Shown: positions 24,787 to 48,068, counted from the stretch's first letter. The stretch: DNA of 64,000 bases from an uncultured Thermoanaerobaculia bacterium (GCA_964641415.1 CAZXMW010000001.1:66545-130544); one strand, 5' to 3'. Notes: generated by a model from the letters alone, not told the origin. Translations and numbers: made by a program.

Positions 24787-24803
24787 TGTCCGGATTCCGG
24801 TCA
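24787..24803 (+). promoter_or_regulatory. Putative enhancer (UAS) palindrome TGTCCGGATTCCGGTCA
   Basis: 16/17 identical to the site at 38206-38222. Its centre lies about 83 nt upstream of the predicted sigma-54 start site. Confidence 0.5.
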
Positions 24804-24851
24804 CCTGGGCACTCACGGCCCGTCATTCCATCCTCCTAATAACAAAGAACC

Positions 24852-24867
24852 TGGCACGTCTCTTGCC
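24852..24867 (+). promoter_or_regulatory. Sigma-54 (-24/-12) promoter TGGCACgtctcTTGCc
   Basis: Exact TGGCAC-N5-TTGC with GG at 24853-54 and GC at 24865-66 (canonical spacing). It lies 30 nt upstream of the ECF sigma ATG. Confidence 0.7.
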
Positions 24868-24896
24868 ATTGACCCGATGTGGAGAGGGAGGAAAGT

Positions 24897-25583
24897 ATGA
24901 TCGCCGATCCTGATGCGGCCTCCGTGAGTCACCGTTCGACGAACCCGACCTCGGCAACAGCCATGGGTGTCGAGGCTGACGACGATCAGCGCCGAGAGGC
25001 TGCCCTCACCGACGAGCAGGCACAGCGCCTTCTGTCGAGGTTCGCGACCGGAGACGAACGAGCGTTCGACCGTCTGGTTGCCGCCTTTTCGCCGCTCCTG
25101 TACAGCGTGTTCCTGCGCTCGTACCGTTTGTCGCTCGACGACGCCGACGACCTCTGCCAGGAGGTTCTTCTCCAGCTCACGATCAATGCCACCACGATCC
25201 GCAACGTCCGGCCGTGGCTTCTGGGGACAGCCATCAACCAGGCGCGGAAGCGAGTTCGGAAGCTCATCCGCGATCGAAGTTTGGCTACGATGTACAAGCA
25301 CGACTGTGAATCGACGGTTTCTCCCGATCTCGACGAAGAGCGAGACCTCGTCTGGCGCGCACTCGGTGGGCAGCGCCACGGCGACCGGCAGATCCTCACC
25401 ATGATCTACGTCGAGGAGCTCAGCTATCAGGAGACCGCGAATCGCCTGGGATGCCCCATCGGCTCGGTTGGACCCACTCGGTGCCGCGCCCTCGCGCGCC
25501 TGGAAAAATCCCTGTGCGAGCTCGACCCGTCGTTATCTTCCTCCGCCAGCCGGAACGTCGACAGCTCGTCCCGAGCGGCGTGA
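24897..25583 (+). CDS. ECF-type sigma-70 family RNA polymerase sigma factor (228 aa)
   Basis: ATG 24897 has GGGAGG at 24886-24891. Region 2 reads ERAFDRLVAAFSPLLYSVFLRSY.LSLDDADDLCQEVLLQL. Region 4 HTH reads ILTMIYVEELSYQETANRLGCPIGSVGPTRCRALARL. Confidence 0.85.
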   Translation: MIADPDAASVSHRSTNPTSATAMGVEADDDQRREAALTDEQAQRLLSRFATGDERAFDRLVAAFSPLLYSVFLRSYRLSLDDADDLCQEVLLQLTINATTIRNVRPWLLGTAINQARKRVRKLIRDRSLATMYKHDCESTVSPDLDEERDLVWRALGGQRHGDRQILTMIYVEELSYQETANRLGCPIGSVGPTRCRALARLEKSLCELDPSLSSSASRNVDSSSRAA

Positions 25584-25634
25584 CCATCCGGGTCCGCTGC
25601 AGTTCCCGGTTGCCTCTGACCCTGCGCGCTGACG

Positions 25635-25880
25635 TCAAGCCCCTGTTCCCCTCCAGAACGCGACGAGGTCGAGCTCGACCCTGTGGCCGGAAACCACGTC
25701 GTCGCCGTCGACGGCCGCGAGCTCCCGGGCTTCGACAACCCATGCCGTTTGCTGCAGCATCTCGGCTCGCCGTTCGCCCAGGCCGTCGCCGGCGCCGCGA
25801 GCTTTGAGGTCGCAGCAGTGGGAGTGGCAGTGACGCTGGCGCCACCCACGTGGCGGGCGTAGAATGAACAGCGTCATCAT
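25635..25880 (-). CDS. Hypothetical small Cys/His-rich protein (81 aa), weak call
   Basis: ATGATG start with GGAG 5 nt upstream, G/C-rich third codon positions, and no competing plus-strand gene. Contains RHCHSHCCD. No family recognised. Confidence 0.3.
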   Translation of the reverse strand: MMTLFILRPPRGWRQRHCHSHCCDLKARGAGDGLGERRAEMLQQTAWVVEARELAAVDGDDVVSGHRVELDLVAFWRGTGA

Positions 25881-25921
25881 CTGACTCCGGTCGCACCCGG
25901 AGCTGTCACGAGGAGGTCATC

Positions 25922-27061
25922 ATGCGAAGCACGAGAGCGATCGTCACCGTCGCGGTGCTCGGGATCCTGGTCCCGGCGCTTGCCCAGGGCGCCATCGTCC
26001 AGTACAACGACCGCGCCAGCTGGCTGGCCGCTATCGGCGGCGCCCCGGATGCCCAGGAGGACTTCCAGGGCTTCGCCGTCGACACCCCCTTCCGGGCTGC
26101 GGCGCTGGCCATGGGAATCGGCGCCATCGGCCAGGCCGGCCTCGACCAGGCGTTCCGCAACGAGGTCGACGCCCCGCCCCTCCAGTTCACCGACAACAAC
26201 GGAACTACCCATGCGTCGTGCTTCGTCAACTACCCGGACAGCGGCGCCGGGTCCGAGACCAACGTCGAGATCGTCTTCAGCCAGCCGGTCAGCGCCTGGG
26301 GCGGCGACTTCAACGGCGTGCTCGGCGGCGAGCTGCTGGCCATCGACGTCGACGGCCTCGATCGGGCCGTCATCGCCACCCTGCTGCCGGCGGCTGACAC
26401 CACGTTCCTCGGCTTCGTCGCCGACGCCGGCGAGCAGATCGACCTCGTCATCTTCCGCGCCCAGAACCAGAACCCGGGCGGCGGCGGCGAGGGCTTCGGC
26501 GCCGACAACCTCGCGGTGGTCTGGGCAACCGCCCCGGCCGGTGCAGCGGTATCCGGCGCCAAGACCGTCGACGGCAACTTCTGGCCCGGCGGCTCGATCA
26601 GCTACCAGGTCGTGCTGGCGAACGCCGGTCCCGGCGACCAGGGCGACAATCCCGGCGACGAGCTCGTTGACGCCCTGCCGCCCGAGATCGCCCTCACCGG
26701 CGCCAGCGCCTCGTCCGGTACCGCCGCCGCCGACCTCGGGACCAACACCGTGACCTGGAACGGGTCGATTCCCGCCGCCGGCTCGGTCACCGTCCAGATC
26801 ACCGCCGTGGTGGGTTCGCCGCCGGTCGGCACAGTGGTCTCCAACCAGGGCGCCATCAGCTTCGACGGCGACGGCAACGGCAGCAACGAGACCCAGGTCC
26901 CGACCGACGACCCAAGCCTGCCCGGCGCCGACGATCCGACCTCGTTCACGGTGGTGGAGCAGCAAGCGATCCCGACCCTGGGCACCCTCGGCCTGCTGAT
27001 GTTGGTGGGAGTTCTCGCCGGAACCGGGTTCGTGCTGCTGCGCTGGCGGCTGGCGGGCTGA
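25922..27061 (+). CDS. Secreted DUF11-like protein with IPTL-CTERM sorting signal (379 aa)
   Basis: AGGAGG lies upstream of ATG 25922. Signal peptide is ..VLGILVPALAQG. A DUF11-like unit is present (GSISYQVVLANAGPGDQGDNPGDELVDALPP...). The C-terminus AIPTLGTLGLLMLVGVLAGTGFVLLRWRLAG is IPTL, a hydrophobic helix and a basic tail. Confidence 0.85.
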   Translation: MRSTRAIVTVAVLGILVPALAQGAIVQYNDRASWLAAIGGAPDAQEDFQGFAVDTPFRAAALAMGIGAIGQAGLDQAFRNEVDAPPLQFTDNNGTTHASCFVNYPDSGAGSETNVEIVFSQPVSAWGGDFNGVLGGELLAIDVDGLDRAVIATLLPAADTTFLGFVADAGEQIDLVIFRAQNQNPGGGGEGFGADNLAVVWATAPAGAAVSGAKTVDGNFWPGGSISYQVVLANAGPGDQGDNPGDELVDALPPEIALTGASASSGTAAADLGTNTVTWNGSIPAAGSVTVQITAVVGSPPVGTVVSNQGAISFDGDGNGSNETQVPTDDPSLPGADDPTSFTVVEQQAIPTLGTLGLLMLVGVLAGTGFVLLRWRLAG

Positions 27062-27250
27062 ACGGGCCGAGCCGACCGATCGGTCCTGGTCTTCGTCTCC
27101 AACGCCGAGCACGGCCCGGCGGTCAACAACTCGGACGAGAGCTTCGAGGTTGCCCTCTAGTACTCGGGGGCGCCGTGCGTCGCCCGTGGCCACGCCGTCG
27201 ATCCCCAGGAAGCCACGATCGGTCTCCAGGACGCCATAGCGGCGCCTACC

Positions 27251-29557
27251 TCACGATCGTTGCGGGGCGGAGTGAGCGAGGGCCTTGCGGATGGCTGAGG
27301 CGAGGTCGGCGATGGAGTGGGGCTTGGGCAGGAAGAACGTGCCCGACGAGTGCTTCAGCTGGTCCAGGAAGCCGGGGCCGGCGTAGCCGGACGTGAACAC
27401 GAAACCCAGGTCCGGGCGCAGCTCACGGACCCGTTCGAAGAGCTCCCGCCCTCCGACCTCGGGCATGGTCACGTCGCTGAGCACGGCGTCGATCTCCAGG
27501 TCCGGGTCGCTCATCATGTCGATGGCGACGCGGCCGTTCTCGGCCTGGACCACGGTGTAGCCGAGCGCCTCGAGCATCCTGACCTGCGTCTCCCGAACCC
27601 GGGTCTCGTCCTCGACGACCAGGACGGACTCGCCGCCGCCGGCCGGCGACGGCGGCTGCGGCGGCTGCTCGGCCTCGGGCGCCACGTCGGCCAGCGGCAA
27701 GTAGAGGTCGAAGGTGGTGCCGGCGCCGGGGCTGCTGTCGATGTCGACGATCCCGGCGTGCTGGCGGACGATGCCGTAGACGCTCGCGAGGCTCAGCCCG
27801 AGGGACTCCCCACGGTTCTTGATGCTGAAGAACGGGTCGAAGATGCGCTCTCTGGTCTCGGCGTCCATGCCGACCCCGGTGTCCGCCACCCGGAGCCGCA
27901 CGTAGCGACCCTCCTTCGCCTCGGCGTGCGCGGCAAGGAGAAGGGCGTCGGCCGTCACGTCGGTGGCCGAGAGGGTGATCACGCCGCCGTCCGGCATCGC
28001 TTCCCGGGCGTTGACGACCAGGTTCAGAATCGCCTGCCCCAGCTGTCCGCGGTCGCCGCGGATGACCAGCGGGCGATCCGTCTTCACGAGCTCGATCCGG
28101 ATCGACTCCGGCACCATTCGCCGCATCCGCTCCGACTCCACCTGAAGGAAGCGCCCCGCGTCGAACGGCGCCATCTCCAGGGTCTGCTGCTGGGCGACGG
28201 CGAGCAGGCGCCGGCTCAGGTCGGCGCCCCGGGAGACCTCCTCGCGGAGGGTCACGAGCTCGGGTGCGGCGGCGAGAGAGTCCGGCAGCTGCAGCTCGAG
28301 GACGTCGACCGCTCCTGAAACCGTCATCAGGAGGTTGTTGAGGTCGTGGGCGATGCCGCCGGCAAGCCGGCTCAGGGCTTCGAGCTTGTGGCTCCGGTTG
28401 AGCTGCTCGGTGATCTCGCGCTCCGCGGTGACGTCGCGCTTGACGGCGACGTAGGCGGTGATGCTGCCGGCGTCGTCGAGCACGGGCGAGATGGTCGCCT
28501 CCTCCTGGAACAGGCTGCCGTCTCGCCGCAGGTTGACCAGGCAGCCGGACCACACCCTGCCGCTCGAGATCGTCTGCCAGAGGTGCTCGTAGAACGCATC
28601 GTCGTGGCGACCGCTCTTGAGGATTCGCGGGTTGGCGCCGACCGCCTCCTCCGCGGCGTAACCGGTGAGCCGCTCGAAGGCGGGGTTGACGTAACGGATC
28701 GTGCCGTCGGGGTCGGTGATGACCACCGACTCGGACGCCTGCTCGATGGCGGTCGCCAGGAGGGCCTGACTCTCCCTGAAGCGCTCGATCTCCGTGACGT
28801 CCGTCAGCACCGCGAAGGTGCCGGCGACGGCGCCGCCGGCGTCGGTCAGCCGCTGGGGCGAGACCAGCACCTCGACCCGGTCGCCGTCCGCGGCGACGCA
28901 GGTGAGGCGATACGGGTCGTTGTCGCCGCCGGCCCGACGCTGCGCGGACTGCTCGAGCAGCACGCCCCGGCTCTCGTCCGTGAGGTGGTCGGTGAGCGGC
29001 CGGCCCAGAAGCTCGTCGCTGGTCCGGCCGAGCATGCGGCAGAGAGCTTCGTTGACGAAGGTCAGGTTGCCGTCCGGATCGTCCGCCGCCAGCCCGTCGG
29101 TCATGGTCTCGACCAGGGCTCGGAACCTGGACTCGGTCTCCTCGAGAGACGTCCTGACCCCGGCGTCGTCGGTGATGTCGATGCCGGTCCCGACGATGAA
29201 CGCGACCCGGCCGTCGGGGCCGGCGACGGTGGTGTTGGACCACGACAGGAGGCGCTTCTCACCGTCCTTGCTCCGCCAGTGGTTTTCGTGGCGATCGGGA
29301 ACCCCGTGCTCCCGGAGTTCGTGGAACGCCGCCGCGAGGCGGTCGACCTCGTCCTCGGGGACCAGAAGCTCCCAGAAGACGCGATTCCGGACCTCGTCGG
29401 CCCGGTAGCCGCTTGTCCTCTCGCAGGCCCGGTTGAACACCACGATCCGTCCGTCGGGGTCGAGCACGACGATCAGGTTGTCGGCGACGTCGAGGATTGC
29501 CTGCAGGAGGTCGAGCTGCAGTGGGGCGTCTCCGGCGCGCAGGTCGTGTCCGGTCAC
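27251..29557 (-). CDS. Hybrid sensor histidine kinase: 3 PAS, HisKA, HATPase, receiver (768 aa)
   Basis: Three PAS-like blocks (..VVLDPDGRIVVFNRACERTSGY.., ..DPDGNLTFVNEALCRMLG.., ..ITDPDGTIRYVNPAFERLTGY..). H-box is LAGGIAHDLNNLL; ATP boxes are NLVVNAREAM, DTGVGM, GLGLS. Receiver reads VLVVEDE...DAVLSDVTMPE. Confidence 0.9.
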   Translation of the reverse strand: MTGHDLRAGDAPLQLDLLQAILDVADNLIVVLDPDGRIVVFNRACERTSGYRADEVRNRVFWELLVPEDEVDRLAAAFHELREHGVPDRHENHWRSKDGEKRLLSWSNTTVAGPDGRVAFIVGTGIDITDDAGVRTSLEETESRFRALVETMTDGLAADDPDGNLTFVNEALCRMLGRTSDELLGRPLTDHLTDESRGVLLEQSAQRRAGGDNDPYRLTCVAADGDRVEVLVSPQRLTDAGGAVAGTFAVLTDVTEIERFRESQALLATAIEQASESVVITDPDGTIRYVNPAFERLTGYAAEEAVGANPRILKSGRHDDAFYEHLWQTISSGRVWSGCLVNLRRDGSLFQEEATISPVLDDAGSITAYVAVKRDVTAEREITEQLNRSHKLEALSRLAGGIAHDLNNLLMTVSGAVDVLELQLPDSLAAAPELVTLREEVSRGADLSRRLLAVAQQQTLEMAPFDAGRFLQVESERMRRMVPESIRIELVKTDRPLVIRGDRGQLGQAILNLVVNAREAMPDGGVITLSATDVTADALLLAAHAEAKEGRYVRLRVADTGVGMDAETRERIFDPFFSIKNRGESLGLSLASVYGIVRQHAGIVDIDSSPGAGTTFDLYLPLADVAPEAEQPPQPPSPAGGGESVLVVEDETRVRETQVRMLEALGYTVVQAENGRVAIDMMSDPDLEIDAVLSDVTMPEVGGRELFERVRELRPDLGFVFTSGYAGPGFLDQLKHSSGTFFLPKPHSIADLASAIRKALAHSAPQRS

Positions 29558-29749
29558 GGCGACCTCTGACGCGACTGATGCCGTTCGCCGGCAACCAGCG
29601 GCACGATTGGTCTCATCACGTTGACCTGCCTGCCTACCGAATGGGTGGAATCTCCCGCCAGGGGCGGGGACGCCGGTGACCGATTGGGCGAGTCGGCGAC
29701 CGGTACGAGCCGGCGCTTCGTCCGGGGCCCCAGAACAGCGGTCATTCTA

Positions 29750-33693: not shown

Positions 33694-33712
33694 GATCGCA
33701 CCGGCCTGTGCC

Positions 33713-34480: not shown

Positions 34481-34687
34481 GTCCAAAGCTCCATCCTTGC
34501 CCGGACCAGCCGGGCGCCGCTGACCGGTGTTGGTCCCTGACCGGCTCGCGCTGCCTGCGTCGGTTGACCTGCTCGCGCTCGGGACATCGGCACGCATGCC
34601 GGCGCCGGTCAGCGGCGCCCGGTGACGGACGCCTCGACGCTCAGGCGGTCGCTGTCGGCGGGGGCAGGGCCGCCACCTTCGCTTCTT

Positions 34688-34696
34688 TGATAAAAT
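34688..34696 (+). promoter_or_regulatory. Extended -10-like element TGaTAAAAT upstream of the HD-GYP gene
   Basis: An AT-rich island in GC-rich DNA, 74 nt upstream of ATG 34770. No convincing -35. Confidence 0.25.
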
Positions 34697-34769
34697 GATA
34701 CCACGCAGGAGGTTTTGCGCACGATCGAGCGGCATCTGATAGGCTTGATTGTCGAGGGGAGACCTCAAG

Positions 34770-35783: not shown

Positions 35784-35870
35784 ACAGAACTCAGCCAAGC
35801 CAAGCCAAGCTAAGATGAGTGATTCCAGCGGATGCAAGATGCCGAGACCACCGTTGATCTGATGTCGGAA

Positions 35871-36269
35871 TCAGGCGTCTGAGAGCAGGGCCGCAATCTC
35901 GGCGAGCAGGTCGTCGAGCTCGAACGGCTTGTAGATCACCCGGTCGGGCTTGGCGAAGTCCTGGAACAGCTGCTCGCGCTCGGGGTCGCTGCTCAGATCT
36001 CGGGCGGTGAGTAGGGCGATGCGGTTCGGCCTCTCGTAGACCCCCGCCGCCTCGTCCTCGCGAAGGATCCGGGCCACGCGATACCCGTTCTCCCTCGGCA
36101 TCATGACGTCGAGCAGGATGACGTCCGGTTTCGCGACCCGGGCCGCGCCGATGGCCTCGAAGCCGTTGGCGGCGGTGACCACCGAGTAGCCGGCGCGTTC
36201 CAGTGCGACGTGGGTGGTGTCGCGGATGTCCGGGTCGTCGTCGACCACGAGAATCGTCGCTTCGCTCAT
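35871..36269 (-). CDS. Single-domain CheY-like response regulator (132 aa)
   Basis: MSEATILVVDDDPDI...PDVILLDVMMP. Its ATG overlaps the upstream kinase stop (ATGA at 36266-36269). Confidence 0.9.
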   Translation of the reverse strand: MSEATILVVDDDPDIRDTTHVALERAGYSVVTAANGFEAIGAARVAKPDVILLDVMMPRENGYRVARILREDEAAGVYERPNRIALLTARDLSSDPEREQLFQDFAKPDRVIYKPFELDDLLAEIAALLSDA

Positions 36270-37951
36270 GCTTCCTCCTGGATTGTCTCGTCCCTCGTCA
36301 TGGCGCGGCTGATGAGTGCGCCGCCGTGGTCGCCATCCTCCGGGTAGCCCGCCGGCCCGAGGACCCGAGGCGGTGTCGCGCTCGAGCTTCTTGGGTCCTT
36401 GAAGCTACTGGCGATGGCCGCCGCGAGCTTGCGGCGGACCACCCACGCGCTCGCGAGGGGCGTGCTCAGGAGCACGGCGATCACCCGATCATGGGCAGGC
36501 TGCCGACAGACCACATCCAGGGATCGCGGCAACAGCCGGTCGACCATGTCGGCGACGGCGTCAAAACGCCCGCTGGTGCGAGCCGGCCGGGCGGCTTGCG
36601 CCGGATCGCCGCACTCGACGACGAGGATGGAAAAGTACGGGTGGGCCCGGAACGAGCTTCGGACTTGGTTTTCGAACGCGATCGTTTCGGTCGCCCGCTC
36701 CGACGGCCGGGGCAGGGCGAAGAAGAACCTGGAGCCCGCTCCGGGCTCGGACTCGACTTCGAGCTCGCTGCCGTGACCGCGGATCAGGTCGCGGCAGATA
36801 GTGAGACCGAGGCCGGTTCCCTTGGGTTTGTCGTCGGCCGTGCCGCCGGCCTGGTAGAAGGGCTCGAAGATCTTGACCTGGTCGGTGGTTTCGAGTCCGA
36901 CGCCGGTATCGCTGACCGCGACGGTGACCCCGTGATCACCCGCGGCCTCCGCGCTCACCGTCACGGCGCCGCCCTCGGGCGTCGCCTTGATGGCGTTGCT
37001 CACGAGGTTGACGACGACCTGCTCGATGCGGGCCGCATCCGCAAATGCCTCGAGCTCCCCGTCGACGCCGTCGACGCTCAGCTCGACGCCCGACGCCGCC
37101 GCCTGGGGACCGAACGGGTCGACGATCTCGGCCAGGAAGCTCTGAAGCCGGACCGGTCCTGGAGAGATGGTCAGTGAGCCCGACTCGGCCTTCGCCATGT
37201 CGAGGAGGTCGGAGACGATGAGCTGGAGACGGTCTGCGTTGCGCCGGATCATCTGCAGAAATCGCGCGTTGGCCTCGGGCTCGGCGACGGGGTCGATGAG
37301 CGAGGTCGCGTTCTTGATCGCCGTGAGCGGGCTCTTGAGCTCGTGGGACACGGTGGAGACGAACTTCGACTTGATGTCGCTCTGCCGCCGCAGCTCCTCG
37401 TTGGCCGCCGCGAGGGCGCGCCGGTTGCGCTCGAGGCTCTCGATGATCGCCTGCTCCTTGCTCACCCGGTGGCGCTCGCGACGCAGCCGGTCGACCAGGT
37501 AGCCGTAGAAGATCGCCACCGAGAACAGGAACGGCAGGCGGATCAGGGTCTGGGTCGTCACGACCTCGTCGACGCCGCCGGTGCGCGCCACGAGCACGAC
37601 GTAGGCGAAGCAGACCACGGCCACGCCGAGGGCGATGAGGCGGATGTTCTCGCCGACGCCGGCGAGAAAGAGCACGAAGAAGTAGAGATAGAAGAACTCC
37701 GAGGTGAAGCGGCCGGTCGCGAGCAGGGCGATGGTGATCCACGCCGTGTCGACGACGACGGTGACGGCAATGAGCCAGGGCGAGTGCAGCACCCGCACCG
37801 GCAGGCCGAGGGCGCAGACGTTCGACAGGATCACCACCACCAACAGAACCATCAGCGGCGCCGGCACCGACCGCGACCCGAACTCGGCGATGAGCAGGTA
37901 GCTGGTCGCGATGATGAGGGTGAAGCGCAGCAGGATGAACGAGCGGTCCAT
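36266..37951 (-). CDS. Membrane histidine kinase with C-terminal degenerate GGDEF-fold extension (561 aa from ATG 37951; ORF opens at 38050)
   Basis: About 6 hydrophobic helices. H-box is SHELKSPLTAI; ATP boxes are NLVSNAIKAT, DTGVGL, GTGLGLTI. A tail of about 170 aa follows the GGDEF topology (YFSILVVECGD...LDVVCRQPAHDRVIAVLLST...) with PAHDR in place of GGDEF. Confidence 0.85.
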   Translation of the reverse strand: MDRSFILLRFTLIIATSYLLIAEFGSRSVPAPLMVLLVVVILSNVCALGLPVRVLHSPWLIAVTVVVDTAWITIALLATGRFTSEFFYLYFFVLFLAGVGENIRLIALGVAVVCFAYVVLVARTGGVDEVVTTQTLIRLPFLFSVAIFYGYLVDRLRRERHRVSKEQAIIESLERNRRALAAANEELRRQSDIKSKFVSTVSHELKSPLTAIKNATSLIDPVAEPEANARFLQMIRRNADRLQLIVSDLLDMAKAESGSLTISPGPVRLQSFLAEIVDPFGPQAAASGVELSVDGVDGELEAFADAARIEQVVVNLVSNAIKATPEGGAVTVSAEAAGDHGVTVAVSDTGVGLETTDQVKIFEPFYQAGGTADDKPKGTGLGLTICRDLIRGHGSELEVESEPGAGSRFFFALPRPSERATETIAFENQVRSSFRAHPYFSILVVECGDPAQAARPARTSGRFDAVADMVDRLLPRSLDVVCRQPAHDRVIAVLLSTPLASAWVVRRKLAAAIASSFKDPRSSSATPPRVLGPAGYPEDGDHGGALISRAMTRDETIQEEA

Positions 37952-38128
37952 GATCGGCGAGCCCGAGCCCGCGACCTGGTCCGCGACGGGGCTGTCCGGT
38001 AATCTGCTCACGCGCGCTCCAAACCTGGAAGCTCGATCCGGCCACTGCACTTCATTCTACCCGAAGCTCCACCCGGAACGACGTTTCCGGCTCGGCGCCA
38101 GAGTCAGAGGGCCGCGTCGTCCGGGCGG

Positions 38129-38145
38129 CGTTCGGTTTCCGGACA
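38129..38145 (+). promoter_or_regulatory. Second, weaker UAS-like site CGTTCGGTTTCCGGACA
   Basis: 14/17 match to TGTCCGGATTCCGGACA; lies 77 bp upstream of the perfect site. Confidence 0.35.
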
Positions 38146-38205
38146 GGGCATCGGACGGGCGGTCACGCAACGGCGGCGGGGCGGATCGGGCGGTCGGGGA
38201 AGTAT

Positions 38206-38222
38206 TGTCCGGATTCCGGACA
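38206..38222 (+). promoter_or_regulatory. Perfect 8-1-8 palindrome TGTCCGGATTCCGGACA (putative enhancer for the sigma-54 activator)
   Basis: Perfect inverted repeat. Its centre lies about 173 nt upstream of the predicted sigma-54 start site. Close variants occur at 24787 and 44916. Confidence 0.55.
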
Positions 38223-38360
38223 GTGTGCCGGGCGCGGTCGAGAATGAAGCGATGGCGGGCCCTTCCATGCGATCGGCCGGCGCCTGTCCCATTTCGCGAC
38301 GGTTGTCCCGAAACGGGAAGGCGGCGACGGCAGCCGCCGGAGATCCGCAGGCCGAGAACC

Positions 38361-38376
38361 TGGCATGGACCTTGCT
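38361..38376 (+). promoter_or_regulatory. Sigma-54 (-24/-12) promoter TGGCATggaccTTGCT
   Basis: GG at 38362-63 and GC at 38374-75 with canonical spacing. It lies upstream of the fimbrial operon, giving a leader of about 150 nt. Confidence 0.7.
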
Positions 38377-38538
38377 GTCATGTTCGGGCATGAAGTGTGT
38401 CGGTTCCCTCCGCCGCGGGCACAACCCCCTCCGCCGAGCTCGACAGGGCGAGGTCGAGAGTGGCGTCGCAGCCCGTTCGTCAACCCAGAAAACCACGCCG
38501 GCAACCCCGGCAGGACCTTCGTTCAAGGGAGAAGAGAA

Positions 38539-39126
38539 ATGAAGAAGATCGTTGTTGCGTGTTTGCTCGTTGTGGGTGCGTTCCTGGTCGCGCCGGGCTC
38601 GGCCTCGGCCCAGGCGACCGGTGACGTGGACGTCTCGATCACCGTCAACGGGTTCGTGATCCTGTACTACTACGACACCGTGGCGATCACCATCCCCTCC
38701 AACGTGATGGCCCAGGCTCTCGCGGGCGCCGACGCCAACGGCGGCGTCGGGAGCCCTCTCGGGTCCATGGCCGCGACGTCGCTCGGCGCGGGCGTTCTGA
38801 CTGCGCCCAACGCGACCGCTCCCGGTGGCACCGCGCCCGGCAGCGACGCCACCCTGACCATTCAGAACGCGTGGTCGATCCGCGGCCTCACCGCCAACGG
38901 CGTCGATGTCGCCGTGCTCGACAACGGCAACGACCTGACCCACGCGAGCGCGGGCACGATCGAAGTCGACCAGGCTCGCTGCGCCGGTTCCTGCACCGAC
39001 CTCGACCCCACGCTCGGGTCGGTGCTGAGCGGCGGCGTCGAGCTCGACCTGGACTTCGCGGGCGTCACAGGCCCCGGGACCTTCTCGAGCGCGGCCACGT
39101 ACACCATCACGGCGACCGTGCTGTAG
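38539..39126 (+). CDS. Secreted fimbrial-subunit-like protein A (195 aa)
   Basis: AAGGGAGAAG RBS precedes ATG 38539. Signal peptide is MKKIVVACLLVVGAFLVAPGSASA. The protein is Gly/Ala/Thr-rich and beta-type, has one Cys pair (CAGSC), and is first gene of a chaperone-usher-like operon. Confidence 0.7.
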   Translation: MKKIVVACLLVVGAFLVAPGSASAQATGDVDVSITVNGFVILYYYDTVAITIPSNVMAQALAGADANGGVGSPLGSMAATSLGAGVLTAPNATAPGGTAPGSDATLTIQNAWSIRGLTANGVDVAVLDNGNDLTHASAGTIEVDQARCAGSCTDLDPTLGSVLSGGVELDLDFAGVTGPGTFSSAATYTITATVL

Positions 39127-39148
39127 AAGGTGTCTGCGAGGTCGAGCC

Positions 39149-39778
39149 ATGAAGCCGACCGGCTTTGATCGCGACCGGGACCGGGTGCTGCGCCCGGTCC
39201 CGGTGGTCGTGGTTGCCGCCGTCGCCACAGTCTTTTTCTTGGCGGCGGCGGCGCCGGCCGAGGCACAATCGCCGCGCGGCGCCGACCTCCGGGCCGGCTC
39301 GAGCGAGCTCTGGATCGAACGGCACGCCCGGCTCGAGCCCGTGACGTCGGTCGACTTCGGCGGCGGCGCCGGCGCCCGGCCCGAGCAAGCGCCGGAGTCT
39401 CTCGCCACCTCCCTCGGCGGCCGGGGCCGCCTGACGACCGGGTTCGCGGCGCCCCCGGTCGGACCCTCGACCTTTGTCGTCCGGCGCGAGGTCGACGGCC
39501 TCTGGCGGGTTCGCAGCCGTGGCCCGGGCGCGGCGGTCGCGACGCGGGTCGACTATGATTTCATCGGGGCCAACGGTGAGCCCGGCGTGCTGAGCCACGT
39601 CACCGACGACCGGTCGGTGATCCCGGTACGGGTCGTCGAGCTGCCGCAGCGGGTCAGGGAACGCCCGGGCGGCGGGGCCACCGTGGAAGGAGGGGTCATG
39701 CTGGAGATGGACTTGGCTCGGGCTCGGGAGGCGGGCGGCTACGGCGGGACCTTGCTGGTCACCGTCGTCCAGCTGTGA
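39149..39778 (+). CDS. Secreted fimbrial-subunit-like protein B (209 aa)
   Basis: Signal-anchor reads VVVVAAVATVFFLAAAAPAEAQ. The C-terminal strand GGYGGTLLVTVVQL resembles the terminal beta-strand of pilus subunits. It starts 22 nt after the previous gene. Confidence 0.6.
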   Translation: MKPTGFDRDRDRVLRPVPVVVVAAVATVFFLAAAAPAEAQSPRGADLRAGSSELWIERHARLEPVTSVDFGGGAGARPEQAPESLATSLGGRGRLTTGFAAPPVGPSTFVVRREVDGLWRVRSRGPGAAVATRVDYDFIGANGEPGVLSHVTDDRSVIPVRVVELPQRVRERPGGGATVEGGVMLEMDLARAREAGGYGGTLLVTVVQL

Positions 39779-39785
39779 GCCGGCC

Positions 39786-40766
39786 GTGATTCTGCTGACA
39801 CATCAGAGGTCTCCGGTGCACGCGGCGAGCCCTCCAACCTGCGCTCGCCGGGTTCTTCTGTCCGTGGTGTTGATGCTCGCTGCGGCGCCGGCTCTCGCCC
39901 AGATCGGCGTCAGCCCGCCGCGCACCGAGTTCAGTCTCGACGACGGTCGGGCGACCCACACCATCCGGGTCTTCAACGTCGGCGGCGAGACCGTCGAGGT
40001 CGCGGTGGAGATCAGCCACTGGGATCTGGACGAGGACAACCGGGTCCGGATCATCCCGCCCACGGAGCAGTCGCTCGACCAGTGGCTGGTCGTCAACCCG
40101 CTGCGCTTCACCCTGGCGCCGGGCGGCGCCCAGGCGGTTCGTCTCGCCGCCCGGCCCCGGGTCGAGCCTGAGCCGGGCGAGCACCGGGCGCTGCTGTACT
40201 TTCGGCAGATCCCCCCGACGCACGAGGATGGCTCGGTCGACGGCACCAAGGTCCTGTTTCGGCTCGGGACCTCGGTGATCGGCCTCGCGCAACCGGTCGT
40301 CCGGGAAGCGGTGGTTCATGAGATGACCGTCGAAGCATCGGGGATCCGGGTCGACATCGAGAGCCTCGGCAACACCCATGTGCGCCTCGCCGGTCAATGG
40401 GCGGTGTGGCCGGCCGAGGTCTACCCGGGGCGAGAGAAGACCGGGCCCATCGAGGGCCTGGAAACAGATGAAGAGGTTGCGCTGCCGGACGGCGTCGTCG
40501 CGGCCCGGATGCTGAGCTCGCTGCCGGTCCTTCCGGGAACGCGGCGGGTGATCCCGACCGGCTTCGGCCTGCCCCTGGAGCCCGGCGCCTACGTCGTCGA
40601 CGTGCACGGCGAGGTCGCCGGGGTCGACGTCGGCGGCGCGTTCGAGATGACCGTGGAGCCGCCGCCGGACGACGAGCCGATGTCGACTCCCGCGCCCGTC
40701 CCGACGCCGGCTCCGACGCTACCGCCGGCAGACGAGCCGGAGGCTGCGCCCACCGACGGCGGGTAG
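39786..40766 (+). CDS. PapD-like periplasmic pilus chaperone with Pro/Ala-rich tail (326 aa)
   Basis: A signal peptide is followed by IGVSPPRTEFSLDDGRATHTIRVFNVGGETVEVAVEISHW...LVVNPLRFTLAPGGAQAVRLAARP, the typical chaperone N-domain pattern. The tail reads PPPDDEPMSTPAPVPTPAPTLPPADEPEAAP. Confidence 0.7.
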   Translation: MILLTHQRSPVHAASPPTCARRVLLSVVLMLAAAPALAQIGVSPPRTEFSLDDGRATHTIRVFNVGGETVEVAVEISHWDLDEDNRVRIIPPTEQSLDQWLVVNPLRFTLAPGGAQAVRLAARPRVEPEPGEHRALLYFRQIPPTHEDGSVDGTKVLFRLGTSVIGLAQPVVREAVVHEMTVEASGIRVDIESLGNTHVRLAGQWAVWPAEVYPGREKTGPIEGLETDEEVALPDGVVAARMLSSLPVLPGTRRVIPTGFGLPLEPGAYVVDVHGEVAGVDVGGAFEMTVEPPPDDEPMSTPAPVPTPAPTLPPADEPEAAPTDGG

Positions 40767-40776
40767 GGCCCGGTTC

Positions 40777-43365
40777 ATGGGGGGCTCCGTGCGGGCGAGA
40801 ACGGCGCCGGTTGCCGCGCTGCTTGCGGTCACTGTGCTCGCAGCGCTCCCGGCGTCGGCGGCGTCCATCGCCGCGACTCTCCTCGCCGACATCGCGCCGG
40901 CCGAGACCGGCATCCTGGTCGGCGTGATCGTCAACGGCGTCGAGGTCGGCTCGGTCGAGGTCGTGCGACGGGACGGCGAGCTGCTGCTGCCGCTGGTCGA
41001 GGTCGTCGAGCTCATCGGCGCCGAGCTCGAGGAGGCCGACGGCGCCGTGGCCGTGTCGACGCCGATTGGGCGCGTGACGCTCGCGCTTGACGAGGTCGTC
41101 CGCGTCGACGGCGTGCTGATGGCGCCGTTCGAACTCTTCGAGGCGCGGCTCGCGACCGGTGTCGCCTTCGACCGCCAGGAGTTCGCCCTGCTCTTCGACG
41201 TGCCGTGGTCGCGGCCGGGCGAGGCGCCGGGAGCGGCGGCAGCCGCCGAGCTCGGCCCCGCTGATTTCACCCCGCCGGCAGCGACCCTGGCCACGCTGCA
41301 GGCCGACCTCCGGGCCGCCCGCGAGTCCGGGCGGGACGTCTACCAGACCTCGACGGTGGCCGAGGGCCGGCTCGCCTCGGGCTGGTGGCGGGTCCGTTAC
41401 GAAGACGACCTCGACACCTCTCATCGCTTCGAGGAGTACTCGTGGCTGCGGACCAGCGGCCGCCGCCAGCTCCTGCTCGGCCACCAACGGCTGCGGCTGC
41501 ACCCGATCTTCGACAGTCTCGAGCTCACCGGCGCCCAGCTCGCCTACACCAACGTCGACCTCGACTCCTTCAGCCGGTCGCGGGAGGCGCGCGAGTTGCT
41601 GTCGCGGCGCATGCAGTCGGTGACCACGGTGCGGGGCTTCGGGCCGCCGGGCGGGCTTGCCGAAATTCGAATCGACGGCGTCCCCCTCGACCGCCGGACC
41701 ATCGCGCTGAACGGCACCTACGAGTTCACCCAGGTACTGCTGCCGTCGCGCCAGGCGACCCGGATCGAGGTCTACGTCTACGACCGCTCGAACCTGCTCA
41801 TCCCGGTGGCGATCGTCGACGAGACCCGGCGCGCCTTCGACCTGCTGATGGAGGACGGCGCGGTCGTCCACCAGGGCGGGCTCGGCAGCCAGGGCAACCT
41901 GGCGGACGATCAGCGGGAGGTCGCCGGCGACGGCGAGCTCGCGGGCTTCTACCAGCTCCGCTACGGCGTCAGCGACCGGCTGACGGTGGAGGCCGCCGCC
42001 CAGCGGGTCGCCGGTCGTGACCAGCTCCAGGCCGGGGTCGTCGCCCGCCTCGGCGCGGGCTTGGTCGCCTCGCTCGGCGCCGTCGCCTCCGACGAGGCCC
42101 TCGGCTACGACCTCGAGCTCAGCGGCCAGTGGGACCGGTGGTGGCTGCAGGGGAGGTCCTACGAGACCGAGGAGGGCTTTCGGGTGGCGAGCCCCGACCG
42201 CGAGTTCGACCACTATCTCGAGCTCGGGCTCGACGCGGGCCGCCGCCTCGACCTGTCCCTGATCGCCCGCCGCCGGGACGGTCCGACCGGCGAGGCCGAC
42301 TACCTCCTGCCGGCGGTCAGCTGGCGGCCGGTCGATTCGATGTCGGTGCGGATCCGACCCGACCTCGACGGCCGCTACATGGGCAACCTGTGGTGGCGGA
42401 TCGACCGTCGAAGCCGGCTCGGCGTCGACGTCCTCGAGGACCTGTCGACCAGCGCCGAGCTGTCCCGCGACGTCGGCGCAAGGAGTACAGTTCGTCTCGG
42501 CGCCGACCTTCGCTCCGGTCTCCCCGACCGCTACTCGGCGACGTACGAGACCGACCTGGATCTCGCTGCCAGGACGACGCTTTCGGCCGGCGCCCTGGTC
42601 GCCGACGGCGAGCTCGGCTACGAGGCCCGGGCGACCATCGGCATCGATCCCGGTTTTCTGGTCAACGTCGAGATCCGCGACGACCCCTCGCTGCGCGGCT
42701 TCGGCGAGGACTCGGGCCGGCGCTACTTCGTCGGGATGTCCATCGACCTCGGCTTCGCCGGTGGGCGCATCATCCCGGCCCACCGCGGCGCGGTCCGCGA
42801 CGACCGGGGCGCCATCGCCGGGGTCGTCCGGGCGGCCGAGGACAGCGCCGGCAGGCGCCGCCTCGACAACGTGCTGGTGCTCGTCGACGGCGCCCGCGGC
42901 GGCCGCACCGACGCCAGCGGGACCTTCTTCGCCGGCCGCCTCGCCGCCGGCCTGCACGTGGTCGAGCTCGACAGCGAGAACCTGCCCATCGAGCTGGTGC
43001 CCGACCGCAGCCGGTGGCTCGTGGAGGTGGCGCCGGGCGCCGTGACCAGAGTCGACTTCACGGTCCATGCCGAGTACGGCATCGCCGGCCGGGTCACCGA
43101 TGCCGCGGGCCGGGCGCTGCCGGGGTGGACGGTGGCGGTGCTCGACTCAGCCGGCCGGGTGGTCGGCCGGGCCACGACCGACCGCTTCGGGCTGTACCGC
43201 GTCGACGGCATGCCGACCGGCGTCTACCAGGTCGGGGTGCTCGACGATCCCACGGCCGAGACGCCCGAGACCCTGGCGACCCGGGAGATCGAGATCGTCG
43301 ACGACTTCCTGTTCGGTCAGGACCTGATGCTGCCGTTCGAGGTTCCGGCGCCTCCTGAGAGCTGA
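40777..43365 (+). CDS. Outer-membrane usher-like protein with two C-terminal carboxypeptidase-regulatory-like beta-sandwich units (862 aa)
   Basis: Signal peptide present. The usher-like N-domain reads VGVIVNGVEVGSVEVVRRDGELLLPLVEVVELIG. A long Tyr/Arg/Asp-rich beta-barrel-like middle follows. C-terminal units read GAIAGVVRAAEDSAGRR..GTFFAGRLAAGLHVVEL and GIAGRVTDAAGRALPGWTVAVLDSAGRVVGRATTDRFGLYRVDGMPTGVYQV. Confidence 0.65.
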   Translation: MGGSVRARTAPVAALLAVTVLAALPASAASIAATLLADIAPAETGILVGVIVNGVEVGSVEVVRRDGELLLPLVEVVELIGAELEEADGAVAVSTPIGRVTLALDEVVRVDGVLMAPFELFEARLATGVAFDRQEFALLFDVPWSRPGEAPGAAAAAELGPADFTPPAATLATLQADLRAARESGRDVYQTSTVAEGRLASGWWRVRYEDDLDTSHRFEEYSWLRTSGRRQLLLGHQRLRLHPIFDSLELTGAQLAYTNVDLDSFSRSREARELLSRRMQSVTTVRGFGPPGGLAEIRIDGVPLDRRTIALNGTYEFTQVLLPSRQATRIEVYVYDRSNLLIPVAIVDETRRAFDLLMEDGAVVHQGGLGSQGNLADDQREVAGDGELAGFYQLRYGVSDRLTVEAAAQRVAGRDQLQAGVVARLGAGLVASLGAVASDEALGYDLELSGQWDRWWLQGRSYETEEGFRVASPDREFDHYLELGLDAGRRLDLSLIARRRDGPTGEADYLLPAVSWRPVDSMSVRIRPDLDGRYMGNLWWRIDRRSRLGVDVLEDLSTSAELSRDVGARSTVRLGADLRSGLPDRYSATYETDLDLAARTTLSAGALVADGELGYEARATIGIDPGFLVNVEIRDDPSLRGFGEDSGRRYFVGMSIDLGFAGGRIIPAHRGAVRDDRGAIAGVVRAAEDSAGRRRLDNVLVLVDGARGGRTDASGTFFAGRLAAGLHVVELDSENLPIELVPDRSRWLVEVAPGAVTRVDFTVHAEYGIAGRVTDAAGRALPGWTVAVLDSAGRVVGRATTDRFGLYRVDGMPTGVYQVGVLDDPTAETPETLATREIEIVDDFLFGQDLMLPFEVPAPPES

Positions 43366-43384
43366 CGGGGTCGGCGCCTCGGGC

Positions 43385-44752
43385 TCACCGGAGCCCGAGC
43401 TGGTCCAGCTTGGTGTACAGGGTCGACCGTGAAATTCCGAGGATCTTGGAAGTGCGCTGGATGTTGCTGCCGGTGGCCTCGAGGACCCGGCCGATGTGCT
43501 CCGCCTCGACCTCGGCCAGGGTCCGGTCGGTGGCCCAGTCCGAGGCTCGGCGCGGCCGCAGGGTGTCGGGCAGGTGGGCGGGGTTGAGGGTGGCGCCGTC
43601 GCCGGCCCGGATCAGGGCCGACTCGACCACGTTGCGCAGCTCGCGCGCGTTGCCGGGCCACGGGTACTTGAGCAGCAGCTCCTGGGCCCGCGCCGAGATT
43701 CGGGTGACCCGCCGCCGGACCACGGGATTGAGCTCGCCGATGAAGTGGTGGGCGAGCTCGAGAACGTCTTCGTCGCGATCCCGCAGCGGCGGGATGTCGA
43801 TCCGGAAGACGTTGAAGCGGTAGTACAGATCGGCTCGAAAACGCCCCGAAGCGACCTCCTCGCCGAGGTCGCTGTGGCTGGCGACGATGAGGCGGACGTC
43901 GGTGGAGATCTCCCGGACCCCGCCGACTCTCCGGAAGGTCTGGCTCTCCACCGCCTTGAGCAGCTTGCTCTGGGCCTGCAGGTTGAGCTCGGCGATCTCG
44001 TCGAGAAACACGGTCCCGCCGCGGGCGATCTCGAGCAGGCCGGGCTTGCGGTCGGTGGCGCTCGTGAACGCGCCCTTCTCGTGCCCGAACAGCTCCGACT
44101 CCACCAGCTGCTCGGGCAGGCTCGCGCAGTTGACCACCGTCAGCGGGCCCGTGGCCCGCCGCGAAAGCCGGTGAATGCCGCGGGCGACGATGTCCTTGCC
44201 GGTTCCGGTCTCGCCGTGGAGGACGACCGCCGAGTCGGTCTCGGCGACCGCCGCGACCAGCTCGCGCACCCCGGCGATGGCGTCGCTTCCGCCGACCAGC
44301 TCGGACAGCACGCCGTTGTGCGCGGCCCGCGACGTGTTCGCAGCCTGGTAGATCGAGACCCGGGACAGCGCCCGGTGGCGCTCGAGGGTCTGACCGACGG
44401 CGCTGAGCAGCACATCGAACGACACCGGTTTCGGCAGGAAGTTGTCGGCGCCGCGGAGCATCGCCTCGACCACGGTCCGGGTGTCGGTCTGCCCGGTGAG
44501 GATGATCACCGAGATCAGCTCGTCGCTGTCCTTGATCGTCGGCAGCACGTCGATGCCGTCCTGGTCGGGCAGGCCGAGGTCGAGCAGGACCAGCTCCGGA
44601 TCGTGGCGGGCGAGGTGGTCGAGAGCGGCCTGCGCCGCCCCCACGGTTGTCACCGAGTAGCCCTCGGCTGTCAGCCATTCGGACAGCATCTCGGCGGTGC
44701 GCGGGTCGTCCTCGACGACGAGGACGCGACCGGTGGCTGGTTGTGACGCCAT
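43385..44752 (-). CDS. NtrC-family sigma-54-dependent response regulator: REC, AAA+, Fis-HTH (455 aa from ATG 44752; ORF opens at 44875)
   Basis: Receiver reads RVLVVEDDPRTAEML...LVLLDLGLPDQDG. Walker A is GETGTGK. The sigma-54 contact loop reads GHEKGAFTSA, a GAFTGA variant. The C-terminal HTH reads NIQRTSKILGISRSTLYTKLDQLGL. Confidence 0.9.
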   Translation of the reverse strand: MASQPATGRVLVVEDDPRTAEMLSEWLTAEGYSVTTVGAAQAALDHLARHDPELVLLDLGLPDQDGIDVLPTIKDSDELISVIILTGQTDTRTVVEAMLRGADNFLPKPVSFDVLLSAVGQTLERHRALSRVSIYQAANTSRAAHNGVLSELVGGSDAIAGVRELVAAVAETDSAVVLHGETGTGKDIVARGIHRLSRRATGPLTVVNCASLPEQLVESELFGHEKGAFTSATDRKPGLLEIARGGTVFLDEIAELNLQAQSKLLKAVESQTFRRVGGVREISTDVRLIVASHSDLGEEVASGRFRADLYYRFNVFRIDIPPLRDRDEDVLELAHHFIGELNPVVRRRVTRISARAQELLLKYPWPGNARELRNVVESALIRAGDGATLNPAHLPDTLRPRRASDWATDRTLAEVEAEHIGRVLEATGSNIQRTSKILGISRSTLYTKLDQLGLR

Positions 44753-44812
44753 GTCGGTCTCAATTGTACCTGATGTCGCCGGGTTGTCACAGGCGTCCGA
44801 AGCCGGGACGCC

Positions 44813-44829
44813 TGGCCGGAATCCGGACA
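44813..44829 (+). promoter_or_regulatory. UAS-like site TGGCCGGAATCCGGACA, with an extra CCGGACA half-site at 44834-44840
   Basis: 15/17 match to TGTCCGGATTCCGGACA. It lies 61 nt upstream of the activator gene start, a position compatible with autoregulation. Confidence 0.4.
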
Positions 44830-44915
44830 GTCCCCGGACATCCGCCCCGACGCCGCCCAGGACGCCCGACAGCACGGGCGAGGGCCGACTCCGGCTCCTG
44901 CCGCGCCGGCGAGAG

Positions 44916-44932
44916 TGTCCGGATATTGGACA
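44916..44932 (+). promoter_or_regulatory. UAS palindrome TGTCCGGATATTGGACA
   Basis: TGTCC-N7-GGACA, 14/17 match to the 38206 site (GTGTCC...GGACAC if extended). Its centre lies about 113 nt upstream of the predicted start site of the 45011 sigma-54 promoter. Confidence 0.5.
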
Positions 44933-44983
44933 CTTTCTGAGTCGGTTCCGGAGTCGTCTGTGAGGTTTTAACTATTTGAGAAA

Positions 44984-44996
44984 CAATAACTTGATG
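44984..44996 (-). promoter_or_regulatory. IHF-like site CATCAAGTTATTG in an AT-rich island between UAS and sigma-54 promoter
   Basis: Matches WATCAA-N4-TTR except the first base. It sits inside a conspicuous AT-rich stretch (about 44961-45005) in otherwise GC-rich DNA. Confidence 0.3.
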
Positions 44997-45010
44997 ACTT
45001 CTTGACGGAG

Positions 45011-45026
45011 TGGCATCGGACTTGCT
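45011..45026 (+). promoter_or_regulatory. Sigma-54 (-24/-12) promoter TGGCATcggacTTGCT
   Basis: GG at 45012-13 and GC at 45024-25 with canonical spacing. GGAGG (45043-47) and ATG 45053 follow. Confidence 0.7.
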
Positions 45027-45052
45027 CAGGTTCGGGGTACACGGAGGCTACG

Positions 45053-45457: not shown

Positions 45458-45544
45458 ACACCGCAGGATCATGAAAGGGCAAGGAAGGGGCGAGAGCAGC
45501 CATGGCAGCCGGCTGGTTCGGGCGACGCAAGGTGGTACCCTGAA

Positions 45545-48055: not shown

Positions 48056-48068
48056 GGGTGGTGGCGAC

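Follow-up and report, generated by a model that had tools for sequence, protein, structure and literature searches.

A predicted sigma-54 regulon for surface structures in an uncultured Thermoanaerobaculia bacterium

Do three sigma-54-type promoters, each preceded by a variant of the same palindrome, form a single regulon, and which protein would bind the palindrome? The question is raised by a stretch of 64,000 nucleotides from an uncultured Thermoanaerobaculia bacterium (GCA_964641415.1, CAZXMW010000001.1:66545-130544), hereafter the window, in which a first-pass annotation made from the sequence alone proposed that one activator links an extracytoplasmic function (ECF) sigma factor, a fimbrial operon, and a PilT-ATPase operon. 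We denote the promoters of these units P1, P2, and P3, respectively. The proposal agrees with every computational test that we ran, and we consider it likely, judging from sequence comparison, that the dyad TGTCCGGAWWYCGGACA is the upstream activating sequence (UAS) of a response regulator of the NtrC family, the product of 43385-44752, which would co-activate the P1, P2, and P3 units. Genes were chosen by third-position G+C and annotated with Pfam and NCBIfam.

Promoters and palindromes in the window

The strict sigma-54 consensus TGGCAY-N5-TTGC (TGGCAYNNNNNTTGC) matches the window (G+C = 69.5%) exactly three times in 64 kb, each time on the + strand and each time at a promoter that had been named before (P1, P2, and P3; Table 1), against 0.15 matches expected from shuffles (0 of 100 shuffles gave three). 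With the transcription start (+1) set at 12 nt past the -12 GC, the predicted starts are 24878 (P1), 38387 (P2), and 45037 (P3), and the promoter-to-start-codon distances are 31, 164, and 28 nt, respectively. On the - strand, a short open reading frame (ORF), 23857-24459, contains a -24/-12-like string (24318) that is near the consensus but is without the GC at -12.

The palindrome is similarly rare. TGTCC-N7-GGACA occurs twice in exact form in the window (0.15 expected), and if up to three mismatches to TGTCCGGATTCCGGACA are tolerated, both strands together give nine matches (0.33 expected); no shuffle reached either count. The distinct sites number six, five of which lie in the intergenic regions upstream of the three promoters, whereas the sixth (53688) lies within a coding region and is probably a chance match. 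These five are the sites that the first-pass annotation had listed, with correct mismatch counts (14/17 and 15/17 for the two weaker ones), and their computed centers, -83 to -250 relative to +1 (Table 1), agree with its range of 83 to 250 nt upstream. The two P3 sites are ~103 bp apart. At P2, both palindromes already named hold up, and there are two further weak conserved elements, at 38285 and 38304, that had not been listed.

Conservation of the palindrome and its spacing

We derived a weight matrix from 12 sites in the intergenic region between the activator gene and the small secreted-protein gene in six other lineages, with zero window sequence. The first-pass annotation had asked for a matrix scan as a check; run on the window with this matrix, trained on other species only, the scan ranks its five sites one to five (19.3 to 26.1 bits; Table 1), and the sixth-ranked site, at 11.9 bits, falls more than 7 bits below them. 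As a negative control, we scanned 1.29 Mb around unrelated activators (L001-L080; generic activators 35-42% identical), which returned no match at 18 bits or more and four at 14 bits or more; none of the 21 control matches at 12 bits or more has a sigma-54 promoter nearby.

We compared the surroundings of the activator orthologues (loci L081-L089; activators 60-75% identical) and of one further locus, L216, which was reached through a distant usher homologue. The comparison covers eight lineages in which the activator is 53-78% identical, G+C ranges from 61 to 70%, and intergenic regions share little sequence similarity. All eight have the activator gene oriented divergently from their orthologue of the small secreted-protein gene that follows P3 (alignment A1). 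A sigma-54 promoter precedes this small gene; it matches the consensus exactly in seven lineages and has one mismatch in L216 (CGGCAC-N5-TTGC). Two palindromes are present in the P3-type region in all eight, with centers that precede the -24 element by 84-87 and 185-193 bp (87 and 190 bp in the window), so that a two-site geometry at about -112 and -216 is conserved across lineages. Calculated from coordinates, the interval that separates the distal site from the start codon of the activator gene varies from 37 to 96 bp, and the spacing of the sites is therefore tied to the sigma-54 promoter. In seven lineages, an AT-rich YAANNNNTTRA block can be aligned downstream of the proximal site and ahead of the -24 element. 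We regard the small gene, which encodes a secreted protein of 134 amino acids, as the predicted invariant core target of the regulon.

P3-like geometry recurs upstream of other genes. In L081, a sigma-54 promoter of its own, with a palindrome at 190 bp, precedes the gene for a PilT-type ATPase fused to HEAT repeats (HEAT-PilT), and in L082 and L084 two palindromes, at 86 and 186 bp, precede a lipoprotein gene. The lipoprotein, of 144 amino acids (L082:3139-3573, L084:3177-3611), is unrelated to the 134-aa protein, and its gene has its own exact sigma-54 promoter; it would be a further member of the regulon, absent from the window.

Upstream of the pilus operon, the window, L081, L082, L084, L087, L088, and L216 all have a sigma-54 promoter that matches the consensus exactly; the more distant operon of L217 has none. 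Outside the window, strong P2 dyads are kept in L081 only, where they lie at 146 and 222 bp (147 and 224 bp in the window). The weak P2 elements align in register between the window, L081, and L087, with a shift in L088, and they resemble the sites beside the second activator paralogue of L216. At P1, a second assembly (L090) has a site and promoter identical to those of the window. Further away, the ECF homologue in L092 (60% identical) has TGGCGC-N5-TTGC 30 nt before its ATG and sites of 16.5 and 13.7 bits ~200 bp upstream, and a receiver-ECF fusion in L094 (52% identical; same genome as L088) has TGGCAC-N5-CTGC with a 16.6-bit site 102 bp upstream. Because the window has one strong site here and conservation elsewhere is weaker, the predicted link of the ECF gene to the regulon is supported less strongly than that of the other two units.

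The exact dyad TGTCCGGAWWYCGGACA is also found in metagenome contigs, at no fewer than 120 loci. Among the matches listed, 14 of 120 loci have the exact sigma-54 consensus 30-400 bp downstream in the right orientation, whereas ~0.4 would be expected from the background density of the consensus in the same loci, an enrichment of ~30-fold; with one promoter mismatch allowed, the number rises to 32. The orientation bias is strong in these loci (33 promoters downstream, 2 upstream), and the dyad-promoter distances peak at 57-64 bp, the P1 distance being 57 bp. This co-occurrence with oriented promoters supports a function of the dyad in the window and argues that it is a genuine sigma-54 enhancer element, in use beyond this clade.

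Some of these dyads belong to an arrangement of their own. In L141, L143, L165, L166, L189 (two copies), L204, and L210, all from other lineages, an extended palindrome GTGTCCGGAWWYCGGACAC lies 61-64 bp upstream of a sigma-54 promoter, and roughly five of the eight copies (L143, L165, the two of L189, and L204) have a conserved block (C)CGGAAACAAAGCACC between palindrome and promoter. The genes downstream encode small coiled-coil proteins (MEKQHFEILLEEMK...); in L127, L143, and L188 there are 67-aa proteins downstream instead, with variable spacing (62-117 bp). The GTGTCCGGAWWYCGGACAC loci look like a separate, uncharacterized regulon with the same enhancer sequence. In one Thermoanaerobaculia genome, a 17.1-bit palindrome TGTATGATTTCTGGACA (L012:9961-9977) lies near the gene of an activator 41% identical to that of the window; counted from the point where the tblastn match begins (query residue 9), the end of the site is 24 bp and its center 32 bp upstream. 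The palindrome is without a sigma-54 promoter nearby and may serve a paralogous member of the family for autoregulation.

The activator and its predicted target units

The product of 43385-44752, which had been described as a sigma-54 activator, has the Pfam domains expected of one (Response_reg, E = 1.5e-25; Sigma54_activat, E = 5.5e-62; AAA_lid_14, E = 3.6e-22; HTH_8, E = 5.5e-12), in the order of the NtrC-like class: receiver, AAA+ domain for sigma-54 interaction, and C-terminal Fis-type helix-turn-helix (HTH). The candidate phospho-acceptor is Asp58 in LLDLGLPD, assigned by eye rather than by residue alignment to a reference receiver. The HTH includes GISRSTLYTKL, in which the recognition helix GISRSTLY is conserved among orthologues. 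The protein scores below every NCBIfam equivalog cut-off, including those of its best NCBIfam match, the PEP-CTERM response regulator PrsR (TIGR02915, 351.5 vs. 502.6), of NtrC (344.6 vs. 558.6), and of GlrR/QseF (NF011695, 282.8 vs. 763 bits). We also rejected an assignment to PilR, which has no model support (no PilR model is among the best 25 of 125 NCBIfam matches) and would be at odds with targets that include no type IV pilin. Upstream of the activator gene is the sole sigma-70-type promoter match in 37900-49400, and because it adjoins the distal P3 site, autoregulation is possible.

Table 1. Features of the predicted regulon in the window; UAS centers are relative to the predicted +1, and scores in bits were obtained with the matrix trained on other species unless stated otherwise
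Feature	Coordinates	Strand	Basis and remarks
Predicted UAS of P1	24787-24803		TGTCCGGATTCCGGTCA; center ~-83; 20.5 bits (25.7 bits with a mixed matrix)
Sigma-54 promoter P1	24852-24866	+	TGGCACgtctcTTGC; exact consensus match
ECF-type sigma factor, 228 aa	24897-25583	+	Sigma70_r2, r4, r4_2; TIGR02937, 59.1 vs. cut-off 42.9
Single-domain response regulator	35871-36269	-	Response_reg; 132 aa; paired with the following kinase
Histidine kinase, 594 aa	36266-38050	-	HisKA, HATPase_c
Distal predicted UAS of P2	38129-38145		CGTTCGGTTTCCGGACA; center ~-250; 19.9 bits
Predicted UAS of P2, perfect palindrome	38206-38222		TGTCCGGATTCCGGACA; center ~-173; 26.1 bits, top match of the window
Two weak proximal palindrome-like elements of P2	38285-38320		TGTCCCATTTCGCGACG (38285) and TGTCCCGAAACGGGAAG (38304); centers ~-94 and -75
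Sigma-54 promoter P2	38361-38375	+	TGGCATggaccTTGC; exact consensus match
Secreted protein, 195 aa, candidate pilus subunit 1	38539-39126	+	Signal peptide MKKIVVACLLVVGAFLVAPGSASA; orthologue alignment A3
Secreted protein, 209 aa, candidate pilus subunit 2	39149-39778	+	Alignment A4; C-terminal motif AG.Y.GT..VTV
PapD-like periplasmic chaperone, 326 aa	39786-40766	+	PapD_N, 24.4 bits vs. cut-off 23, marginal
Usher-like outer-membrane protein, 862 aa	40777-43365	+	AlphaFold and Foldseek fold match
NtrC-family response regulator/sigma-54 activator, 455 aa	43385-44752	-	Response_reg, Sigma54_activat, AAA_lid_14, HTH_8
Sigma-70-like promoter of the activator gene	44763-44790	-	GTGACA-16-TACAAT, 10/12; consensus match only
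Distal predicted UAS of P3	44813-44829		TGGCCGGAATCCGGACA; center ~-216; 19.3 bits
Proximal predicted UAS of P3	44916-44932		TGTCCGGATATTGGACA; center ~-113; 22.3 bits
Putative AT-rich element at P3, like a site for integration host factor (IHF)	44984-44996		CAATAACTTGATG; 12/13 to the IHF consensus YAANNNNTTGATW, taken from PMC3045617
Sigma-54 promoter P3	45011-45025	+	TGGCATcggacTTGC; exact consensus match
Small secreted protein, 134 aa	45053-45457	+	Signal peptide; GSVS.(S/T)IR(L/V)E motif in closer orthologues
HEAT-repeat protein fused to PilT-type ATPase, 836 aa	45545-48055	+	TIGR01420, 385.2 vs. cut-off 319.1; HEAT_2, T2SSE
PilT/PilU-family ATPase, 392 aa as listed	47952-49130	+	TIGR01420, 424.9 vs. 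319.1; match from residue 46

The histidine kinase and single-domain response regulator on the other side of P2 adjoin the module in L081, L087, and L088/L089 as well, and the kinase is probably the cognate sensor of the activator. We infer that the regulon would respond to a single phosphorylation input. The kinase, probably this neighbor, would phosphorylate the receiver, probably at Asp58; activator dimers at the dyads would assemble into an active AAA+ ring, and DNA bending, at P3 probably through the AT-rich IHF-like element, would carry the ring to the promoter. There it would contact the sigma-54 holoenzyme in the closed complex at each of the three -24/-12 promoters and open them with ATP, so that the small secreted protein and the two PilT-type ATPases (P3), the chaperone-usher operon (P2), and the ECF sigma factor (P1) would be switched on jointly, the last of these spreading the response to further genes.

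The interval between P1 and P2 (27251-38050) is a dense signaling cluster that holds, besides this kinase, two PAS hybrid histidine kinases, a receiver-GGDEF protein, a receiver-HD-GYP protein, a HisKA-only protein, and a single-domain receiver, and a PilZ-domain protein is encoded at 51530-52450. Together they point to an input of cyclic di-GMP (c-di-GMP) into the same surface programme.

The P3 unit had been presented as a PilT-ATPase operon. PilT ATPases are indeed present downstream, and the description of two PilT-like motors stands, both proteins exceeding the cut-off of the PilT/PilU family model TIGR01420; the first gene, however, is not PilT but the 134-aa secreted protein. This protein has no Pfam or NCBIfam match, and its single-sequence AlphaFold model is unreliable (pLDDT, the predicted local distance difference test, of 59.7) and too poor for a structure search. 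Its motif is diverged in L088 and L216 (GTMSLSINL and GTTSLTINV). The two PilT genes would be co-transcribed with the small gene. In the first, HEAT repeats form an N-terminal extension of ~470 amino acids; the true start of the second is probably later than listed because the listed ORF overlaps the preceding gene. L081 keeps the HEAT-PilT fusion, and its neighbors there are a PilB/MshE-like ATPase and a STAS/SpoIIE partner-switching set.

The P2 operon consists of four genes, for two secreted proteins, a chaperone, and an usher-like protein. An ORF starting at 38365 was rejected as the first gene, the real first start codon after P2 being 38539 (MKKIVV..., a product that has a signal peptide); this leaves a leader of ~150 nt. 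An Rfam scan of the whole window, this leader included, returned no RNA family. The two candidate subunits are paralogous (hhalign probability 92%, E = 6e-7), and in both, hydrophobic residues alternate at the N-terminus of the mature protein and the C-terminal part has a G.Y.GT..VT motif; Pfam and PDB sequence searches with both families gave no match except a weak DUF4402 in one orthologue of subunit 2. Neither the chaperone nor the usher has a significant match among PDB sequences, the best matches of the chaperone, all PapD, being weak (E = 0.05-0.2). The 862-aa protein has no Pfam Usher match at E <= 0.01 and no NCBIfam match, only a C-terminal CarboxypepD_reg. We modeled it with AlphaFold from an alignment of ten homologues (mean pLDDT 66, moderate), and FimD or PapC ushers fill the first 13 places when the PDB is searched with this model in Foldseek (E = 1.8e-21 to 2.8e-11, probability 1.0), in alignments of ~730-935 columns, nearly full length. 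The TM-score is ~0.3 for the whole multi-domain chain and 0.45-0.50 against pore-domain structures. The usher family is very narrow, with ten clusters, of which the two with an organism name, and no others, are labeled Thermoanaerobaculales; from such labels on close homologues, the window probably belongs to this order of Acidobacteriota. The operon is thus chaperone-usher in architecture and in its predicted usher fold, yet very divergent in sequence, and sequence models mostly miss it. With a PapD_N chaperone and an usher by predicted fold, the label of a fimbrial operon is justified, and the model indicates a real but highly divergent chaperone-usher system.

The label of the P1 gene as an ECF sigma factor is likewise sound, with TIGR02937 above its cut-off. 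A ribosome-binding site GGAGAGGGAGGAAAG follows P1, and the ATG at 24897 is ~20 nt past the predicted start of transcription. No anti-sigma gene was recognized after the ECF gene on either strand. The closest ECF relatives outside this genome (P0124-P0136) are mostly receiver-ECF fusions of ~295-342 amino acids; the window protein has an unstructured-looking N-terminal extension of ~55 amino acids instead of the receiver. Just upstream of P1 are two giant ORFs, 526-12768 (~4,080 aa) and 12970-23547 (~3,525 aa). The latter, the one of the two that was scanned, has 12 DUF11 (CLIPPER) repeats, five Calx-beta domains, and one cadherin domain, and looks like an adhesin. A smaller DUF11 protein is encoded after the ECF gene (25922-27061), and DUF11/CLIPPER genes adjoin the activator module in L081 and L088 too. 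The short ORF 23857-24459, on the - strand and divergent from P1, has a partial weak GGDEF match and may be a degraded diguanylate cyclase gene.

Alternative readings and related systems

Several observations weigh against one activator serving all three units. The gene rpoN is not in the 64-kb window and was not looked for elsewhere in the genome. The loop of the activator reads EKGAFTSA, where the canonical sigma-54 contact loop is GAFTGA; the Phe-Thr core is kept, but GAFTSA occurs in 3 of 120 homologues among the matches listed, against ~67 with GAFTDA and 36 with GAFTGA, and the close orthologues mostly have GAFTGA. P1 has a single site at a short distance (-83), and the ECF promoters in other genomes are one base off the consensus (TGGCGC, or CTGC at -12). 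A strong dyad directly upstream of the pilus operon is absent in L082, L084, L087, and L088. No orthologue of the window activator is present in the listed metagenome dyad loci (best 48% identical), and since the dyad is used in such lineages, this specificity of binding is not confined to a single protein. Finally, L216, a 6.35-Mb contig, has two paralogous activators (6098-7522 and 13271-14632), each 53-54% identical to that of the window, which flank the pilus operon. One is divergent from this operon and the other from the small gene; each has its own sites, of different types with the weaker type on the pilus side, and the recognition helices differ slightly (GISRSALY vs. GISRSTLY). The arrangement suggests that the activator gene was duplicated and that the two copies split the targets.

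Because L216 has two activators, a paralogue elsewhere in the genome of the window could share or take over sites, so that some or all of the dyads would be bound by a protein encoded outside the window and the neighboring activator would control only P3. The division of labor in L216 speaks for this, as does the occurrence of dyad and sigma-54 promoter in lineages without an orthologue of the window activator; the P2 elements at 38285 and 38304 are, moreover, closer to the pilus-side sites of L216 than to the main consensus. We nevertheless judge it unlikely, as the strong P1 and P2 sites (20.5-26.1 bits for the strongest of each) fit the activator/small-gene matrix as well as the P3 sites do, the distal P2 sites of the window and of L081 match the main consensus, and in six of the seven other lineages (the exception being L216) the sequenced neighborhood contains one activator gene only. 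It is much less probable still that the palindrome is the operator of a regulator unrelated to sigma-54, such as a repressor or a c-di-GMP-responsive factor, that merely co-occurs with the promoters. The neighborhood is rich in c-di-GMP and two-component genes, but sites 84-224 bp upstream of -24 with fixed spacing and an orientation bias have the geometry of enhancers and not of operators overlapping a promoter, and the activator is the only DNA-binding gene linked to the sites through eight lineages.

A G+C-rich motif in a G+C-rich genome (69.5%), with an extra three-mismatch match in the coding region at 53688, could also be shared by chance, or be a repetitive or mobile palindromic element without a regulatory role. 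This reading is barely credible. Shuffles never reached the observed counts, the independent matrix sets the five sites apart by more than 7 bits, site position is kept across genera despite diverged flanks, and there is no conserved flanking repeat structure around the sites; we regard it as effectively refuted by the matrix test, the alignment, and the fixed geometry. A regulon under the activator at 43385-44752 thus remains the reading that we prefer.

Such a regulon can be compared with several known systems. NtrC at glnAp2 is a two-component sigma-54 activator with dyad enhancer sites. The window activator shares with it the order of receiver, AAA+, and Fis-type HTH domains, a 17-bp dyad, several sites 80-250 bp upstream of GG-N10-GC, and an AT-rich IHF-like element in between. 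It differs in the sequence of the site, in its targets, which are surface structures and not nitrogen metabolism, in its phylum (Acidobacteriota), and in the distance between paired sites, which is ~103 bp at P3 and ~30 bp for NtrC. PilR/PilS is a two-component sigma-54 system that controls type IV pilin genes, and PilR sites are built on TGTC repeats. Here too a two-component sigma-54 activator would govern pilus-related genes, but the targets in the window are without a type IV pilin and comprise a chaperone-usher operon and PilT-type retraction ATPases instead. The P2 operon resembles FimC/FimD and PapD/PapC systems in its order of two paralogous secreted subunits, chaperone, and usher, in its PapD_N match, and in the full-length fold match of its usher; unlike FimD and PapC, this usher has no Pfam Usher match, and its subunit family is unrecognized.

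The nearest described parallel is GlrR/QseF of E. coli, part of a system of Enterobacteriaceae that includes QseE and QseG. GlrR binds to three TGTC-N10-GACA motifs over 100 bp upstream of glmY's sigma-54 promoter, with IHF sites nearby (PMC3045617), and QseF activates rpoE, which encodes an ECF sigma factor, from a sigma-54 promoter (PMC6075780). Half-sites of TGTC/GACA, a cascade in which the activator drives an ECF sigma factor (predicted for the window), and a connection with the cell envelope are common to this system and the window. The spacing differs, however (TGTC-N9-GACA, 17 bp rather than 18 bp), the activator is not an orthologue, and the targets are pilus and PilT genes, not a small RNA.

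The design is therefore of the textbook NtrC type, and an activator that drives an ECF sigma factor is already known from QseF and rpoE. Control of the cell exterior by sigma-54 is an established theme (PMC3162934), and the regulon, which fits this theme and repeats the activator-ECF design, extends rather than changes known biology. In the literature, which was incompletely searchable, we found no direct sigma-54 control of a chaperone-usher operon, no sigma-54 regulon in Thermoanaerobaculia, and no description of the motif. A bolder interpretation is that the activator, the 134-aa protein, and the chaperone-usher system unrecognizable by sequence constitute a new class of surface fiber in Thermoanaerobaculia, in which case the regular co-regulation with HEAT-PilT would reflect a functional link between the fiber and type IV pilus-like motors. 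We hold this to be improbable; the 134-aa protein would then be a new subunit or, by analogy with QseG, a periplasmic partner of the sensor kinase.

For the little-studied Thermoanaerobaculales (Acidobacteriota), the predicted regulon is a clean one, with a DNA motif, three promoters, and a -112/-216 geometry that holds across genera, and it places a chaperone-usher pilus system missed by sequence models under predicted sigma-54 control. What is less ordinary in it is the divergence of the pilus, its predicted control by sigma-54, the two-site geometry with sites ~103 bp apart, and the invariant small secreted protein.

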